From: Candidatus Shapirobacteria bacterium
Lineage (GTDB): Bacteria > Patescibacteriota > Microgenomatia > UBA12405 > BS750m-G30
Direction of reading: 5' to 3'
DNA: 41,320 nt
Assembly (NCBI GenBank): GCA_016783425.1
Contig: JADHWP010000003.1
Location: forward strand, 1 to 41,320
In this document: positions 18,981 through 26,042 of the stretch, in pieces
How the letters are laid out: each line of letters opens with the position of its first letter
How positions within the stretch are numbered: the first letter of the stretch is position 1
Program-made: the position numbers and the translations under genes
The notes under the pieces: model-generated
What the model was told of the DNA's origin: nothing
The model's database searches: none
The model's input: only the letters and a program-made list of their open reading frames with translations

Positions 18981-20099
18981 TTATTTATAACCAATTGGCT
19001 TACTGGTCGGGGCCAGCTCTAAACTTAATCTTCTTCTTTGCTGGTCAACATGCTCAATAAAGCACTTTACTTTCTCCCCAGCCTTAAGAATGGTTGTGGG
19101 TGGAATTTTGCTAATATGAATTAGGCCTTCAATCCCCGGCTCTAAATTAACTAAAGCCCCGAAATTAGTAATTTCTACTATTTTCCCAGATACTGAAGTC
19201 TCGGGTGGATACTTTTTCTTGATATCCGCCCAAGGATCAGTTATTAGTCTTTTGATCGAAAACTGAAGTTTTTCTCCTATTTTATTTAAAAGAACTACTT
19301 TTACTTTATCCCCGGCTTTATAAATCCGGTTTAAACCAGCAACTTTCTCCCAAGAAACTTCAGAAATATGAACCAGGCCTTCTAGTTCTAACTCTTCTTT
19401 TTTGATAGAAATGGTAATAAAAAGACCAAAGGGCTCAACCCGCATAATTTTAGCTTCAAACTCTTTGCCTTCTTTTAAGTCTTCCATCATCTTTTTTTCC
19501 TTGGCCACTACTTTGGGCTCAGAAACCATGCGCTCGGAAAAAACTAATCTGTTTTTAGTTTGATCTACTTCCAAAACCCTAGCCTCGACTTGCCTACCCA
19601 CTAGATTGGCTGGATCGCCCTCAAATTTTTTCCCAATTTGGGAACCAGGAATAAAACCGAAAAGACCAAAAGGAGCAATTACCACCACCCCGCCCCGATT
19701 AACCTCTTTACCTTTAATTTTAACAGTGCTTTTTTCTTTTAAACTTTTTTGAAAAAACTGCCAAGATTGTTCAAAAGCAGTTTTACGTAAAGAAAGCAAA
19801 GTTTGGCCCCGCTCGTTCTCCAATACCCGAATTTGAACTTTAATTTTGTCTCCTACTTTAAGCTGAGAGGCAAAATCACTAACTAAACCCAACTCTTTTC
19901 CCGTAATAATCCCTTCGGTTTTCCCCCCAATATCTAAAAACAAGGTTTTGGGGCGCATTTCCACTACTGTTCCAATGACAAATTCACCACGGGAAAAAGT
20001 TTTTAAAGGAGTGGAGGATAAACTTAATAGCTCCTCCATAGTTTTAGGAGTAATTGAAGCTTTTACCTTACTCTTCTTTGTTTTTTGTACTTTTGACAT
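18981..20099 (-). CDS. rpsA: 30S ribosomal protein S1 (four S1 domains)
   Basis: Repeated S1 motifs (DIGGKTEGII, FGFIPGSQ, EGLVHISEVSW, EGLIHISK). Confidence 0.92.
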   Translation of the reverse strand: MSKVQKTKKSKVKASITPKTMEELLSLSSTPLKTFSRGEFVIGTVVEMRPKTLFLDIGGKTEGIITGKELGLVSDFASQLKVGDKIKVQIRVLENERGQTLLSLRKTAFEQSWQFFQKSLKEKSTVKIKGKEVNRGGVVVIAPFGLFGFIPGSQIGKKFEGDPANLVGRQVEARVLEVDQTKNRLVFSERMVSEPKVVAKEKKMMEDLKEGKEFEAKIMRVEPFGLFITISIKKEELELEGLVHISEVSWEKVAGLNRIYKAGDKVKVVLLNKIGEKLQFSIKRLITDPWADIKKKYPPETSVSGKIVEITNFGALVNLEPGIEGLIHISKIPPTTILKAGEKVKCFIEHVDQQRRRLSLELAPTSKPIGYK

Positions 20100-20743
20100 A
20101 ATTCATATTTCTCCTTTCAATATTTATTTTTCAAGTAGAAACTTTTTCTACTTCTACTTATTTTACCAGGTAAGAACATATTCTTACCTTAATTGACCAA
20201 AAATCAGATTGTTGAGATTAAAAAAGAAAAATCTTGCTCGGTTGATAGGTACAGCTTGGCTTAAACTATTACTAGTCTTACACCGGCTGCCCATGCCCAG
20301 TAGTCTCCTGGGAACCTGATAATGATTCCTAATCTCGGGGTGGGCTTCCCGCTTCAGATGCTTTCAGCGGTTATCCTTTGGAAACATAGCTACCCGACAA
20401 TGCTCTTGACAGAACAATCGGTACACCAGAGGTTTCCCCAACCAGGTCCTCTCGTACTGTGGTCAGCTCCCCTCAAGAATCAACGGTTACTGCGGATAGA
20501 GACCGAGCTGTCTTACGACGCTCTGAACCCAACTAACGCGGCGCTTTAATGGGCGAACAGACCAACCCTTGGCCACTTCTTCATGGCCAGGATGCGCCAA
20601 GTCGACATCGATGTGCCGATCCGGGCCGTCTATATGGACTATCGGGCCCGACCAGCCTGTTATCCCCGGGGTAGTTTTTATCCGTTAAGCCCCATGTTTA
20701 ACCATTCAAGCATGGGGGATCACTAAGACCTGCTTTCGCATCT

Positions 20744-20819
20744 CTCCGACGTAACGTCGGAGTGGTATCACCTTAAATCTCTTCAATCTATTGAATGAAA
20801 GAAATAAAAGGATTAACCA
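20744..20819 (-). other. 76-nt insertion in 23S domain V (near E. coli ~2370)
   Basis: Splits conserved GAGC|AGATGCGAAAGCAGG; forms two hairpins. Confidence 0.75.
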
Positions 20820-21993
20820 GCTCGACTTGTAAGTCTCGCAGTTAGGCTAGCTTCTGGCTTTGCCCTTACAGTTCGGTTTCCATCCGAACTAAGCTAACCT
20901 TTGTACGCTCGCGCTACCTTTTAGCAAGCGGCTGCCCCAGCCAAACTGACCACCAAACACTGTCCCTGTCCGAGTATTCATCGGACTTAGGTGAGACGCA
21001 AACATGATAAAGGGTGGTATTCCACTGGTCTCCGACGTAACGTCGGAGTCCCACCTATTCTCGACAATTACCAAATTCTAATCAATGTTAAGTTTCAGTA
21101 AAACTCCACGGGGTCTTTTTGTCCTGCAGTAACTAACCGGCATATTCACCGGTATTTCAATTTCGCCGGATGAAGGGTCGAGACAGTTGCTCGGTCGTGA
21201 AGCCTTTCATACTGGTCTGAACTTACCAGACAATGGACTTCGCTACCTTTGGATCCTTAGAGTTAGGACCGTCGTTCACCAGGGCTTCAGTTTGAGGCAG
21301 GTCGAAATTTCGACCCACCACGCCCCTTAACCTTCTGGCACCGGACAGGCTTCAGCCCCTATACTTCCCCTTACGGGTTTGCAGAGACCTGTGTTTTTGA
21401 TAAACAGTCGCCGAGCACTCGTTCGCTGCGGCCCCGCAGTTGCGGGGCAAGGCATCTCCCGAAGTTACGCCTAGCTTTTTTGCCGAGTTCCTTGACCCTC
21501 CTTCTTCCGATCGTCTTAGTATACTCAACCTGCCCACCCGTGTCGGTTTTCGGTACGAACGCTATTTTTTCTCCCAACGAAGCTTTTCTGGGTACCAGAA
21601 CCCGATAGGATTTCCCAAACAAGTTTGGAATTCCGGCAAGTCTTACTTTAAAACGGAATGGCGGATTTGCCTACCACTCCTAGCTCAACTAACCGATGCG
21701 GCAATTTCACTGCCACACCCCACCTCTCCCGATACGTCCCTCCCTTGGTAGTAACGAAAAAACAACGGGGCTGGAATATTAACCAGCTGTCCATCCACTA
21801 CCCCCGCATGTTGCGGGACTCATGTTAGGCTCGCCTAACCCTCAGACGACGAACGTGGCTGAGGAAACCTTGGGCTTTCGACGATTTAGATTCTCACTAA
21901 ATTTACGCTACTCATGCCGGCATTCTCGCTTCCCAGCGCTCCACCCCGCCTCACAGCGGGACTTCACTGCCCTGGGAACGCTCCCCTACCAAC

Positions 21994-22160
21994 TCGCTCG
22001 TAGAGCGGGAAATTCCAAATCACAAATTCCAAGATACAAACAATAAATTACAAATCCCCAAGTAATCCAAACTGGATGTTTAGAGATTGGAATTTGGTTA
22101 ATTGTAATTTGTCTGGAATACTTGGTACTTGGTTATTGAAATTTTTTGTTCTACGAACGA
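21994..22160 (-). other. 23S intervening sequence at helix 45 (heptamer-repeat hairpin)
   Basis: Lies between GAACGCTCCCCTACC and TTCGGTG...TTTAGCC; GC clamp plus AAATYHC-type repeats and their complement. Confidence 0.88.
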
Positions 22161-22802
22161 ATTCTCCGTTTTCGGTGGTCTGCTTTAGCCTCGATAAATT
22201 TTCGGCGCAACCTATCCTCCGCCAGTTGGCGGATCGACCAGTGAGCTGTTACGCTTTCTTTAAAGGATGGCTGCCTCTAAGCCAACCTCCTGGCTGTCTA
22301 GGATCGATCACTTCCTTCCCCACTTAGCAAGACACTTAGAGACCTTAAACGGGAGTCTGGGTTGTTTCCCTTTCGCCCAACCAGCTTAGCCCGGCTGGAC
22401 TGACTACCTGATAACACTACTCGGTATTCGGAGTTTGGTTGAACACCGGAGATCGCTCCCCAAATGCTCATTCAGTCGCTCTACCCCCAAGTAGATAAAT
22501 TCAGGCGCTATACCAATATATATTTCGGGGAGAACCAGCTATTTCCAAGTTCGATAAGCATATTACCTCTAACCACAGGTCATCCGAAGGGTTTGCAGCC
22601 CCTACCGGTTCGGGCCTCCTTCCGACTTTCGTCGGAATTCACCCTGCCCATGGTTAGCTCACTTGGTTTCGGGTTTTCCGCCAGCCGCTTATATGTCGCC
22701 TTATTCAGACTCGGTTTCCCTACGCCTCCGGTTTGTAAAAACCTTAGACTTGCGGATGACGAAAACTCGCCGGCTCATTCTTCAATAGGCACGACATTAC
22801 TC

Positions 22803-22961
22803 GCCTGCAGGGCGAGAAAATCACAATATTCAAATAACAAGATCCAAACAAAATTCAAATACCAAAATTCAAACTATGAAATCTTAACATTTGAAATTTG
22901 GAAAATTGGTTATTGTTTGAGATTTGACTATTGGAACTTGAGATTTCCTGGTCCTACAGGC
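22803..22961 (-). other. 23S intervening sequence at helix 25 (heptamer-repeat hairpin)
   Basis: Lies between AGGCACG and GTTTCAG...TTTCACTCCCC; same architecture. Confidence 0.88.
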
Positions 22962-23015
22962 AAGCTCTGTCTGTTTGTTAGCAAATAGTTTCAGATTCTA
23001 TTTCACTCCCCTTCC

Positions 23016-23046
<31 letters not shown>

Positions 23047-23255
23047 ATACGCTATCGGTCAATAAGAGTATTTAGCCTTTCCGGATGGCCCCGGAAGATT
23101 CCCACGAAGTTTTGCGTGTTCCGTGGTACTCAGGTACTCTGGCCAAACTTAGTCAAATTTCATCTACAGGACTTTCACCTTCTTTGGTAGACCAATTCCA
23201 GGCCTTTTGATTATCTTTTCAGTTTGGACTATCAGAGCCCTACAACCCCCACCTC

Positions 23256-23416
23256 GCGCTCCGCGCGAGAAACTCCAAGCTCCAAATTCTAAATCCTAAA
23301 CAAGATCCAAATTACAAATTCAAAATTCCAAAATAATTTTTGGAAATTGAAAATTGATTATTGGCCATTGTTTGGAAATTGAAAATTGAAAATTGAAAAT
23401 TGCTCGTGCGAAGCAC
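23256..23416 (-). other. 23S intervening sequence in a domain I variable helix (~E. coli 270; heptamer-repeat hairpin)
   Basis: Lies between CCTACAACCCC and GGTTTGGGCT; same architecture. Confidence 0.85.
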
Positions 23417-23755
23417 AAAGCAGGTTTGGGCTTCTCCCTTTTCGCTCACCGCTACTAAGGGAATAATTATTATTTTCTTTTCCTCTGGGTACTAAGATGT
23501 TTCAGTTCCCCAGCTTACCCCCCCGACGTTACGTCGGGGTCCTCCGATTCAACATCGAAGGGGGTTATCCCATTCGGACACCGCCGGATCACAGGTTACA
23601 GACACCTCCCCGACGCATATCGCCGTCTGTCGCGTCCTTCTTCGGCTCTTATCACCAAGGCATCCACTATTTGCTTCTTTGCAAGATTCTATCTTTTTTT
23701 TCAACAATCTGATTCTTTAGTCAATTACTTTACTTTTAAGTTGTCAAGGTGCGGG

Positions 23756-23830
23756 TGGACCGAGGCGGGCTCGAACCGCCGACCTGTCCGATGCAAACGG
23801 ACTGCTCTAATCCGACTGAGCTATCGGCCC
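23756..23830 (-). tRNA. tRNA-Ala(TGC), CCA not encoded
   Basis: Acceptor GGGCCGA/TCGGTCC with G3:U70; anticodon arm GTCCG-TTTGCAT-CGGAC. Confidence 0.97.
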
Positions 23831-23868
23831 CGAAAACAAATAACTTCAGTTTTCAAGTGGTTTTTAAT

Positions 23869-23897
23869 AAGAAAAAACCGGGGCAATCCCGGTTTCT
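23869..23897 (-). terminator. intrinsic terminator within the rRNA leader
   Basis: AAACCGGG-ATTGC-CCCGGTTT followed by TTTCTT. Confidence 0.75.
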
Positions 23898-23921
23898 AAA
23901 CTTTATGAAGACACACGCTTC

Positions 23922-23969
23922 CTACATAATCAATATTTTTTTGGTTAAGAATTGTGTTTTTCTTCTCAT
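23922..23969 (-). CDS. putative 15-aa leader peptide MRRKTQFLTKKILIM
   Basis: ATG...TAG between the promoter and the terminator; no SD. Confidence 0.4.
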   Translation of the reverse strand: MRRKTQFLTKKILIM

Positions 23970-24027
23970 TAAGTCGAATGCCGGGACTAAGCCCGAAAAA
24001 ACTACTCTTTTTTAAAAGAGTGTCCTT

Positions 24028-24056
24028 ATTATATAGAGGCAAGCCTACCCTGTCAA
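24028..24056 (-). promoter_or_regulatory. consensus sigma70 promoter of the tRNA-Ala/23S unit
   Basis: TTGACA-17 nt-TATAAT, a perfect match. Confidence 0.9.
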
Positions 24057-24099
24057 CTGGAATCTCTATGTAGTATTACTTCTCAATTATCCTCTTGGT

Positions 24100-24307
24100 T
24101 TAACGTCTCAATTGTCTACTTTAAATCATCTAAAAACTTTTACGCTAATGCTAGATCCTTCGCTTACACTCAAGATGACAATTAGCCGTCATTCTGAATT
24201 CAGTTCAGAATCTTAAACAATGAAAGAATAGATCCCGAAACAAGTTCGGGATGACACTTGGCGTGGACAGTTCAGATGTCAAAAAAGGGTGACAATTGAG
24301 ACGTTAA
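24100..24307. mobile_element. MITE-like element with internal REP-like palindromes
   Basis: Perfect 17-bp terminal inverted repeat TTAACGTCTCAATTGTC (24100-24116 / 24291-24307); no ORF. Confidence 0.8.
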
Positions 24308-24345
24308 GTTACATTAAAGTCTCCTTTTTTGTGCTAGAATGAAGT

Positions 24346-25104
24346 ATGGATTTAAAACAAGCTTTAATTCAACAACCTCTTTTTGCTTTTAATTTGGATG
24401 ATTTTACGATTTTTAAGGCCGTTTCCTCGGCCTTGGCTGAAAAAAAAGCTCCGGCTATTTTTCAACTATCTCCTGGCGAAGCTGATTTTTGGGGCCTGGA
24501 AAATTTTGTTAATTTATTAAAACCCCATCAAAGTAAAGGCCTTTTTTTAAATATTGACCATGGCAAAGATTTAAATCTTTTAGAAAAAGCTATTGGCCTA
24601 GGTTTTGACCTAATTCATTTTGACGGTTCAAGTTTGCCTTGGGAAGAGAATATCGGTCAAACAGCTAAAATAGTAGAGATGGCCCACGCCAAGGGCGTTT
24701 TGGTTGAAGGTGAGCCTGAACCGGAAAACACTGATCCTCAAAAAGTAGCGGAATTTGTTAGCAAAACCAAGGTTGATTTAATTGCCGTTTTTTGCGGCAA
24801 TAAGCATGGCCTTGACCCTGCCAATCCCGAAAACTTAGATCTTGAAAGATTGCGAAAAATAAAAAAAGCAGTTGGCGAAACTCTCCTTGCCTTGCACGGC
24901 GGCTCCGGCGTACCTTTAGAACAGATAAAACAGGTAATGAATGAGAGGTTAGTGGCTAAAATTAACATTAATAGCTTACTGCGAAACACCTACTTTCAAG
25001 CCCTAAAAGAACAACTAGCTCAATATCAAGGAAAAAAAGTGTACGAATTATTAAAACCAGTTTCTGAAAAAATTTCTCAAAAAGTAATAGAATTATTAGA
25101 ATAA
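24346..25104 (+). CDS. fba: class II fructose-bisphosphate aldolase (short form)
   Basis: AFN, IDHG, FDGS, VEGE, GNKHG, LHGGSG, KININ. Confidence 0.9.
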   Translation: MDLKQALIQQPLFAFNLDDFTIFKAVSSALAEKKAPAIFQLSPGEADFWGLENFVNLLKPHQSKGLFLNIDHGKDLNLLEKAIGLGFDLIHFDGSSLPWEENIGQTAKIVEMAHAKGVLVEGEPEPENTDPQKVAEFVSKTKVDLIAVFCGNKHGLDPANPENLDLERLRKIKKAVGETLLALHGGSGVPLEQIKQVMNERLVAKININSLLRNTYFQALKEQLAQYQGKKVYELLKPVSEKISQKVIELLE

Positions 25105-26042
25105 TGAGCAACACTTTTGACGCTATTACCTTTGGCTCGGCCACCATTGATGTTTTTTTGGAAAGCCCGCAATTTGGTAAAAAACTTGAGTTGGCCTATG
25201 ACTCTAAAATTGAAGTTGAGCAAAAGCTAGTTTCTTGCGGTGGAGGAAGCACTAACGTGGCAGCTGGACTATCTCGTTTGGGCTTAAAAACAGCCGCAGT
25301 AGCCCGCTTGGGCCAAGATCAATTTGCCCCCTTAGTAAAAGAGGAACTAATAAAAGAAAGAGTGGAGGTTAGGTTACTTTGTATCAAGCCCGGAGATAAA
25401 ACTGACTCTTCAACCATTTTGGTAAATTCTTCAGGGCAAAAGGTAATTTTAGTTTCCCGCGGACCCACCAGACTGGAAGCCCAGGATATTAACTGGAGCC
25501 AACTTTCGGCCAAACAGTTCCATATCGCTTCTTTAGAAGGAAATTTAAAACTCGCCTCAAAACTAATTAACTATGCCAACAACCACGATATAAAAGTATC
25601 CTGGAACCCGGGCTCCCGCGAACTGGCTCAAAAAAACAAGCTCATTACTTTGCTTAACAAAATTGATATTTTAATTCTTAATCAGGAAGAAATAGAAAAG
25701 CTAACGGGATTAAAAATGACTAACCCCTTTTTTTGGCCGGAAATTTACAAACTCCCCGTTCCCCTGCTTACTATTACCCAAGGCCAAAAAGGATGTTTTT
25801 TGGCTTTTCCCGAACAAAAGCAAAAAACTCATCTTAAGGCAATTAAAACCAAAGTAATCGAAACTACCGGCGCGGGCGATGCTTTTTGCGCCGGCTTAAT
25901 TGCCGGTTTGTTTTATCAGGAAACTGCCCAGGAAGCCGCTCTTTGGGGGCTAGCTAACGGCGCTTCGGTTGTGGCTCAATATGGAGCCAAGGCTGGTTTA
26001 CTAACTCGGGGAGGGATAAAAAAATGGTTGAAAAAACGCTAA
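25104..26042 (+). CDS. PfkB family carbohydrate kinase
   Basis: GGGSTNVA..LSRLG and ETTGAGDAF. Confidence 0.93.
   Translation: MSNTFDAITFGSATIDVFLESPQFGKKLELAYDSKIEVEQKLVSCGGGSTNVAAGLSRLGLKTAAVARLGQDQFAPLVKEELIKERVEVRLLCIKPGDKTDSSTILVNSSGQKVILVSRGPTRLEAQDINWSQLSAKQFHIASLEGNLKLASKLINYANNHDIKVSWNPGSRELAQKNKLITLLNKIDILILNQEEIEKLTGLKMTNPFFWPEIYKLPVPLLTITQGQKGCFLAFPEQKQKTHLKAIKTKVIETTGAGDAFCAGLIAGLFYQETAQEAALWGLANGASVVAQYGAKAGLLTRGGIKKWLKKR

Follow-up and report, generated by a model that had tools for sequence, protein, structure and literature searches.

A putative ribosome-mediated transcription attenuator is conserved before the tRNA-Ala/23S rRNA unit of Candidatus Shapirobacteria and relatives

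This study concerns the leader of the tRNA-Ala/23S ribosomal RNA (rRNA) unit in a stretch of 41,320 nucleotides (nt) from a Candidatus Shapirobacteria bacterium (assembly GCA_016783425.1, contig JADHWP010000003.1, positions 1 to 41,320), referred to here in its full length as the window. On the minus strand, a consensus promoter is followed by a 15-codon open reading frame (mini-ORF), a hairpin resembling an intrinsic terminator, tRNA-Ala(UGC) and 23S, and the region around the start codon of the mini-ORF can pair with the 5′ arm of that hairpin to form a competing helix. The parts of this element, their order, their conservation, the covariation of both helices and the absence of the element from 16S rRNA leaders are established. 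Based on these observations, we consider it somewhat probable that the element is a conserved ribosome-mediated transcription attenuator of the unlinked tRNA-Ala/23S unit. An earlier prediction, made from the sequence of the window alone, had proposed that rRNA synthesis may be gated by ribosome occupancy of a leader peptide, and comparison with related genomes supports this proposal.

Conservation and specificity of the leader element

The original prediction described a perfect promoter, an 8-mer (23988-23981) within a small hairpin, a 15-codon ORF and an intrinsic terminator, and all of these were found (Table 1). The promoter matches TTGACA/TATAAT at 12 of 12 positions and was the sole such site within 19500-25500; from its spacing, transcription is predicted to start at about 24021-24024. 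The terminator hairpin has ten pairs, five of them G-C (-13.2 kcal/mol), and its 5′ arm begins 25 nt after the stop codon of the mini-ORF. The predicted complementarity between the 8-mer and this arm is real, but it is not the sole pairing; rather, it forms part of a longer helix (23990-23964 with 23910-23883). The best duplex of these two strands reaches -22.1 kcal/mol, with one of 200 shuffles as good. The leader measures approximately 190 nt from promoter to tRNA, and at minimum energy it folds into the antiterminator form (-51.4 kcal/mol; z = -4.3; none of 200 shuffles as good). In this fold, the whole leader nests as a single long, irregular hairpin, whose apical loop is the second half of the frame. 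The first half, as had been suggested for a segment of the ORF, is paired to the spacer behind the stop codon. The small hairpin that holds the 8-mer is a candidate anti-antiterminator, and an analogous one is present in leaders of another family (f2; the handles f1, f2, f3, f5, f6 and f7 denote families of the order). The A/U-rich hairpin at the 5′ end of the leader likewise has counterparts in same-family and f2 leaders. Since terminator-like sites number 8 in the scanned region against 7.7 expected, features of the single window are weak evidence on their own. It is the comparative evidence that raises the putative leader element above chance.

The comparison covered 132 genomes of the order, of which 72 matched the query. 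After two tRNA-only matches were dropped, 70 regions upstream of 23S remained. Leaders were annotated by taking the best hairpin closing at a T-run and then the best promoter 50-230 nt upstream, and this automatic procedure annotated a promoter and a hairpin with T-run in 67 of the 70. Two of the three failures (G023 and G082) show the parts of the element by eye. In the third (G059), the leader is minimal: an A/T hairpin with its T-run follows tRNA-Ile. The distance from the predicted transcription start to the hairpin end is 85-169 nt. An ATG frame of at least nine codons that ends 15-32 nt before the terminator 5′ arm is present in 64 of the 67 leaders, compared to a mean of 6.7 and a maximum of 13 in 200 rounds of dinucleotide-preserving shuffles of the same leaders. 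The position of the upstream ORF (uORF) is thus conserved, a point on which the original prediction depended. In 63 of the 67, the stop codon lies 15-30 nt from the terminator arm; the stops themselves vary (TAG in 37, TAA in 20 and TGA in 10), and frames of 15 codons (14 leaders) and of 19 codons (11 leaders) are the commonest. tRNA-Ala(UGC) precedes 23S in 60 of the 70 regions. The remaining ten all belong to f2, and in these genomes the element is nonetheless present, with boxA and the 23S processing stem following directly. This indicates that the element travels with 23S and not with the tRNA. Taken together, the predicted mini-ORF and alternative pairing are conserved and covary in at least six families of the order and in many other families of the class.

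The element is specific to 23S. Because the assembly to which the window belongs (33 contigs, 90% complete) yielded neither a 16S nor a 5S gene, 16S leaders were taken from relatives. The combination of promoter, positioned frame and terminator was found in none of 28 16S leaders of the order. These consist of a promoter, a small hairpin in one family (f5), and then boxA and the processing stem. As the original prediction had it, the 23S gene is unlinked: the 16S genes of relatives are unlinked to 23S and devoid of the element. In two same-family relatives, 16S does stand on the same contig as the 23S unit, 8 kb off in one and 18 kb off on the other strand in the other. Further afield, the triple is present at 17 of 24 tRNA-Ala/23S loci from other orders of the class, which are best-matching loci and not a random sample, at neither of two further loci of the class, and at 3 of 21 23S loci from other classes of the phylum, where most 23S genes lack a preceding tRNA. 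One of the 17 (L126) has linked 16S, tRNA-Ile, tRNA-Ala and 23S genes, with all three parts of the element in the 175 nt that separate its tRNAs. In some other orders, a stretch of approximately 220-250 nt that resembles lysine/glutamate-rich protein-coding sequence lies directly before tRNA-Ala (L133, L148 and L127). An attenuator-like element stands upstream of this stretch in L133 and L127, and no terminator was found in L148.

A promoter downstream of the terminator could drive the rRNA independently of the leader. However, the promoter scan of the window found nothing between terminator and tRNA, and no second promoter is conserved behind the terminator among the 67 leaders, where only weak sites (9/12) occur, at differing places, in eight. 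The gap between terminator and tRNA, 43 nt long in the window, shrinks to only 8-14 nt in several lineages. It had also been predicted that a boxA-like stretch lies in this gap. The stretch exists and is kept within the genus, and a similar one is seen in one same-family genome and missing in another. However, it is not the canonical boxA of the lineage, which is a 12-mer behind the tRNA (23752-23741) and is common to 16S leaders and 23S spacers. This boxA is always behind the terminator. Based on established knowledge of antitermination in rRNA (rrn) operons, a Nus-type complex nucleated at boxA could not, from that position, protect polymerase at the terminator. The 23S processing stem lies behind the tRNA as well, so the leader is not involved in it. 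The 16S units of relatives end with the same kind of hairpin and T-run, which speaks for the use of intrinsic terminators in this group.

A search of 23700-24350 against Rfam 15 (E values up to 10) returned only the tRNA at threshold; the best other match to the leader scored 18.9 bits, with 228.9 needed. We also considered whether the leader might be a displaced 5S rRNA or another known small RNA. This idea was rejected, as there was no 5S match in the window or the assembly and no match in Rfam.

The two competing helices and the mini-ORF

Both helices of the proposed switch show covariation, as would be anticipated from the original prediction. For the terminator, RNAalifold on a plain MAFFT alignment of 22 leaders returned eight pairs, six of them with compensatory changes. 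On plain MAFFT alignments RNAalifold returned the terminator only, and the antiterminator pairs were hand-written or modelled. When folds were ended before the terminator 3′ arm, the 5′ arm paired with the region just before the ATG in 21 of 21 leaders from f1, f2, f3, f6 and f7 (the strong-helix families). In one of them, one such pair falls on the first bases of the frame. The duplex of start region and terminator 5′ arm ranges from -15 to -42 kcal/mol in these leaders, and in 20 of the 21 no more than 5 of 200 shuffles were as good. In f5, the largest family (46 leaders), the partner of the arm is the ATG itself with the next four codons, and the helix consists of two short stems. These leaders likewise fold into one hairpin, with the stop codon near the apex. 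In every lineage examined, the 5′ strand of the antiterminator is the translation start region.

An alignment-free test of covariation was performed by pairing each start region with the terminator regions of all other genomes. Cognate partners averaged -25.9 kcal/mol versus -16.0 for swapped partners in the strong-helix group, and -11.6 versus -9.2 in f5. None of 2000 permutations of partners reached the cognate mean in either leader type. Alignments point the same way. Across nine f2 leaders, 24 hand-written antiterminator pairs were 92.6% paired, compared to 30-47% with the partner slid, and five of the 24 change on both sides. A covariance model built from f2 recovered leaders of four other families on the correct strand. 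Before counting, 15 of its 38 rows were removed as reverse-strand matches or matches to three off-target places, which arise because the long hairpin is nearly symmetric. In the 23 leaders left, from five families, the 24 pairs were 89.5% paired versus 29-56% when slid, with 22 of the 24 changing on both sides. The 12 leaders outside the model-building set gave 85% versus 33-62%. Further, the terminator loop falls within the complementary stretch in most lineages; termination itself demands no particular sequence in a hairpin loop.

With regard to the mini-ORF, several observations suggest that the frame is under selection. Twelve leaders from f1 and f2 have diverged strongly, yet the frame is 15 codons long in each of them. 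They contain no in-frame stops in the proposed frame versus 17 and 6 in the other two, and their mean BLOSUM62 score per aligned residue is 1.29 versus 0.60 and 0.97. Ten f5 leaders of 19 codons gave no in-frame stops versus 22 and 19, and the 19-codon f5 set scored 1.27 versus 0.95 and 0.76. In one pair of f5 genera, insertions and deletions within the frame compensate one another so that its length is preserved. The peptides diverge greatly between families, and differing codons in the f1 and f2 set are synonymous in 98 cases and non-synonymous in 604. Selection thus looks to act on an open frame of set length and position and not on a particular peptide, a pattern typical of regulatory leader frames. 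The peptides are rich in lysine, arginine and asparagine. That of the window has no alanine, and no run of a single codon or of regulatory codons was present in the leader peptides examined from the order. In leader peptides of several other orders, the C-terminus carries a similar short motif (a hydrophobic residue, arginine-glycine, one or two residues, stop). Its glycine and glutamine codons differ synonymously among three genera of one family. The motif, as read in three sequences, hints at selection on the end of the peptide, perhaps for slow release at the stop codon.

How would such a frame be initiated? Only 5 of the 29 ORFs of at least 120 amino acids (aa) in the window have a Shine-Dalgarno-like motif, so the lack of one at the mini-ORF is no argument against its translation. 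In many of the 29, among them the aldolase gene at 24346, a -10-like hexamer precedes the ATG by 5-12 nt, which suggests that leaderless or very short-leader mRNAs are the norm. The f5 mini-ORFs are arranged in this way too, their ATG being 2-26 nt away from the predicted transcription start.

Proposed mechanism and alternative explanations

From anatomy and conservation, we infer that the frame is translated, that the hairpin terminates and in which direction the switch turns. With its sole promoter approximately 190 nt before the tRNA, every transcript of the unit would meet the terminator before the boxA of the lineage, that is, before RNA polymerase can become resistant to termination. If no ribosome were on the leader, each new 3′ base would find its partner beside the growing helix, and the leader would zip up from the apex downward. 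The helix would extend into the terminator 5′ arm before the 3′ arm exists; no terminator would form, and 23S would be made. A ribosome on the mini-ORF would instead keep the start region and the frame single-stranded, so that the long hairpin could not nucleate and the terminator would form. A ribosome farther along the frame would, on kinetic grounds, open the hairpin in its upper part. The more initiation capacity there is to spare, the smaller the share of read-through would then be: plentiful initiation-competent ribosomes would mean less 23S and scarce ones more, a direct negative feedback of ribosomes on 23S. The narrow range of distances from stop codon to terminator suits a ribosome that has not yet left the frame, or is only then leaving it, as polymerase arrives at the point of decision.

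Folding predictions agree in part. Among the 21 leaders of the strong-helix families, the full-length minimum-energy fold was the antiterminator in 14 and the terminator in 7, and read-through is the default expected from these models. When a ribosome footprint was masked at the start codon, the terminator fold was predicted in 15 of the 21.

Several points weigh against this reading. Masks placed mid-frame or at the stop codon left the predictions as they were (13 antiterminator and 8 terminator versus 14 and 7 unmasked), so that termination by any translating ribosome, as opposed to one at the start codon, rests on the kinetic argument. In f5, the antiterminator is weak, beating shuffles individually in only 17 of 46 leaders, and at full length 42 of the 46 take the terminator form as their minimum-energy fold. 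The default state of f5 may therefore be termination, and this is the chief internal sign that either the polarity may differ in this family or an extra factor may take part. Substitutions by codon position (442/427/453 and 355/329/428) show no clear third-position bias. In four RNA sequencing runs, contigs matched only a conserved part of 23S (23560-23679) and came mostly from other organisms. The 23-leader alignment was fitted to the modelled structure and leans towards it, and the compared genomes are relatives, so their counts are not independent. Lastly, the reading offers no obvious reason why 23S should be throttled and 16S not.

An arrangement of opposite polarity is one alternative. 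A ribosome translating or stalled in the mini-ORF, because of starvation, inhibitors or slow release of the peptide, would promote the antiterminator, and 23S would rise when translation is impaired. Such behaviour would resemble that of antibiotic-sensing uORF attenuators and of most known ribosome-mediated attenuators. The terminator default predicted for f5 would suit a switch that needs turning on, the C-terminal arginine-glycine motif with its synonymous codon variation could be the sign of a pause at the stop codon that depends on the peptide, and the distance from stop to terminator is tightly kept. However, the antiterminator 5′ strand is the start region, which a ribosome must vacate before pairing can occur; no segment overlapped by the frame competes with that strand in the strong-helix families, and the mid-frame and stop-codon masks favour neither fold. 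We regard this alternative as unlikely. It is less probable still that the switch is set by a trans-acting factor binding the long hairpin, be it a small ligand, a ribosomal protein or some other protein that binds RNA, with the frame as a by-product or in a separate role. Leaders in which ribosomal proteins act by transcription attenuation are described for Bacillus, a long irregular hairpin is a plausible protein site, and a gene for ribosomal protein S1 stands directly behind 23S. Yet conservation between families does not extend to the sequence enclosed by the helix, beyond its paired strands and the ATG. The leader matches no Rfam family, and the positioned frame in 64 of 67 leaders would go unexplained.

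Two further alternatives do without regulation by the leader peptide, and both seem to us very improbable. The hairpin might be a constitutive structural element (boxB-like, or for pausing or processing) that is always read through, the frame being untranslated. In f5, the 16S leaders have a hairpin directly before boxA, some with short T-runs, and the hairpin of the f5 and f2 23S leaders also stands just before boxA. However, the 16S hairpins have neither the long T-run, the frame nor the alternative pairing, and in f1, f6 and others it is the tRNA and not boxA that comes after the 23S-leader hairpin. A T-run follows the annotated hairpin directly in all 67 leaders, as the scan anchors on T-runs, and where leaders were read by eye it comprises 6-8 T. 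Such a scheme also has no room for a covarying pairing in competition with the hairpin. Least probable of all, the mini-ORF might be a separate functional micropeptide gene with a leaky terminator, and the rRNA would merely share its promoter. Frame length and some peptide features are indeed kept (15 codons in f1 and f2, the C-terminal motif in other orders), and short-leader genes lacking a Shine-Dalgarno motif are the norm in this genome. Against this, the peptides diverge strongly with no clear synonymous excess, and neither the conserved complementarity of start region and terminator nor the tie of the element to 23S would be explained.

Genomic setting and relation to known systems

The features of the locus are collected in Table 1. 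The class II aldolase gene upstream of the leader is divergent, and the leader hairpin therefore cannot serve to terminate an upstream gene. The approximately 245 nt between this gene and the rRNA promoter are absent from a same-genus relative, whose similarity to the window begins at 24035. Within them, 24100-24310 holds two hairpin-forming repeat copies flanked by a 16-nt inverted repeat (about 24305-24290 and 24118-24103). A second contig of the same genome carries the promoter-proximal end (24110-24048) again at 82%, and in a distant relative a similar repeat follows the 16S gene. This stretch looks like a small mobile or repeat insertion. On the other side of the unit, the S1 gene is among the few in the window with a Shine-Dalgarno motif and may be co-transcribed with 23S. 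At 3461 nt against a model of 2925 positions, the 23S gene carries roughly 500 nt of insertion(s), and an ORF inside it on the opposite strand has no Pfam match. One same-family genome is labelled Candidatus Shapirobacteria, Microgenomates group of Patescibacteria.

Table 1. Features of the tRNA-Ala/23S locus, with positions in the window
Feature	Positions	Strand	Basis or remark
-35 hexamer TTGACA	24056-24051	-	12/12 match jointly with -10 hexamer; spacer 17 nt
-10 hexamer TATAAT	24033-24028	-	Promoter scan
5′-terminal A/U-rich hairpin of leader	24024-24000	-	Minimum-energy fold
Small hairpin, 3′ arm being the beginning of the antiterminator strand	23995-23982	-	Sequence reading
Antiterminator 5′ strand (translation start region, from 21 nt before ATG to codon 2)	23990-23964	-	Duplex fold and covariation
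Mini-ORF, 15 sense codons and TAG (ATG 23969-23967, TAG 23924-23922)	23969-23922	-	
Antiterminator 3′ strand (post-stop spacer, terminator 5′ arm and loop)	23910-23883	-	Folds and covariation
Predicted intrinsic terminator (GC-rich hairpin 23897-23873, then six T to 23872)	23897-23872	-	
boxA-like stretch between terminator and tRNA	23859-23845	-	
tRNA-Ala(UGC)	23830-23754	-	
Canonical lineage boxA, 12-mer	23752-23741	-	Same 12-mer family in 16S leaders of same-family relatives
23S processing stem, 5′ strand	23727-23681	-	Complementary to 20237-20190 behind 23S; spacer match 84% to opposite strand
23S rRNA gene	23688-20228	-	3461 nt
ORF of 174 aa inside 23S	22464-22988	+	
Ribosomal protein S1 gene (four S1 domains)	20099-18981	-	About 130 nt behind 23S, same strand
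Class II aldolase gene	24346-25104	+	Upstream of leader

Control of rRNA synthesis is a central problem of bacterial growth control, and in model organisms it is ascribed to effects at the promoter, through guanosine tetraphosphate (ppGpp), initiating nucleoside triphosphates, Fis and DksA. A RelA/SpoT domain was not found in a search of the genome of the window (90% complete) or of its three closest relatives. We considered whether the attenuator substitutes for ppGpp control, but no such link emerged, since RelA/SpoT is present in 37 of 61 genomes of relatives that also bear the leader element.

The original prediction likened the leader to amino-acid operon attenuators (trp, his, leu, thr and pheA). 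The likeness holds for a short promoter-proximal frame, a terminator before the regulated genes and a mutually exclusive, covarying antiterminator, whose 5′ strand resembles the terminator 3′ arm; in both, the position of a ribosome during transcription would control the outcome. It does not extend to the trp-like geometry or to regulatory codons. Here, the product is rRNA and tRNA and not a biosynthetic operon, and a run of cognate codons is lacking. Instead of covering an anti-antiterminator, the frame lies within the loop closed by the antiterminator in the strong-helix families, or supplies a strand of it with its first codons in f5. The default predicted when translation is lacking is read-through and not super-attenuation. 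The ampC growth-rate attenuator of E. coli is similar in that it was proposed to sense ribosome abundance through binding to the leader. In contrast, its ribosome is thought to block the terminator and raise expression, whereas here it would block the antiterminator, and the target is different.

The uORF attenuators found by Term-seq before resistance genes (vmlR, msrD, tlrB/yxjB and bmrCD) also combine a uORF with a terminator and antiterminator and report on the state of the translation machinery and not on one amino acid. They differ in that read-through follows from stalled ribosomes and the targets are resistance genes. Here, the target is the ribosome's own RNA, and the anatomy points to termination when the frame is occupied. 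The rrn boxB-boxA-boxC/Nus sites (PMC10250234, in part) are comparable in that the lineage boxA occurs in the same unit and a hairpin precedes boxA in some families. In our element, by contrast, the hairpin has a full T-run and a covarying competitor, and boxA stands behind it. For E. coli rrn operons, ribosomes showed no direct effect on transcription in vitro and control is taken as indirect, according to the portion of PMC2320978 available. Common to both is that rRNA output drops, or here would drop, when translational capacity is in excess. A cis-encoded device would, however, let ribosomes act directly on elongating RNA polymerase. A preprint on unlinked rRNA genes places Patescibacteria among their bearers and mentions the view that linkage serves to secure joint regulation and stoichiometry; leaders are not described in its available text. 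Our full-text literature searches, with supplementary files not covered, returned no leader-peptide attenuator or terminator/antiterminator switch before an rRNA gene in these bacteria. On this reading, an rRNA gene is the target of a new form of ribosome-mediated transcription attenuation, one that is conserved across a class of candidate-phyla bacteria.

If this reading is true, a leader-peptide attenuator would be known from in front of an rRNA gene for the first time, and the feedback proposed for E. coli, where it was never found as a direct mechanism, would here have a direct form encoded in cis. The annotation of candidate-phyla genomes would also be affected, as the frame and terminator are currently unannotated. 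At approximately 150 nt, self-contained, and with a consensus promoter of the sigma-70 type and an ordinary intrinsic terminator, the element can be assayed outside its uncultured hosts. These hosts have tiny genomes and one copy of their rRNA genes, which are unlinked. Since 16S is unlinked and lacks the device, the leader could match large-subunit RNA to functional ribosomes. For the class of ultra-small bacteria in the Microgenomates group as a whole, we see about even chances that ribosomes gauge their own spare capacity through a frame of 9-21 codons in the nascent 23S leader, terminating or releasing polymerase accordingly. A device that lets the translating ribosome decide whether polymerase enters 23S would be a new solution to the control of rRNA synthesis.

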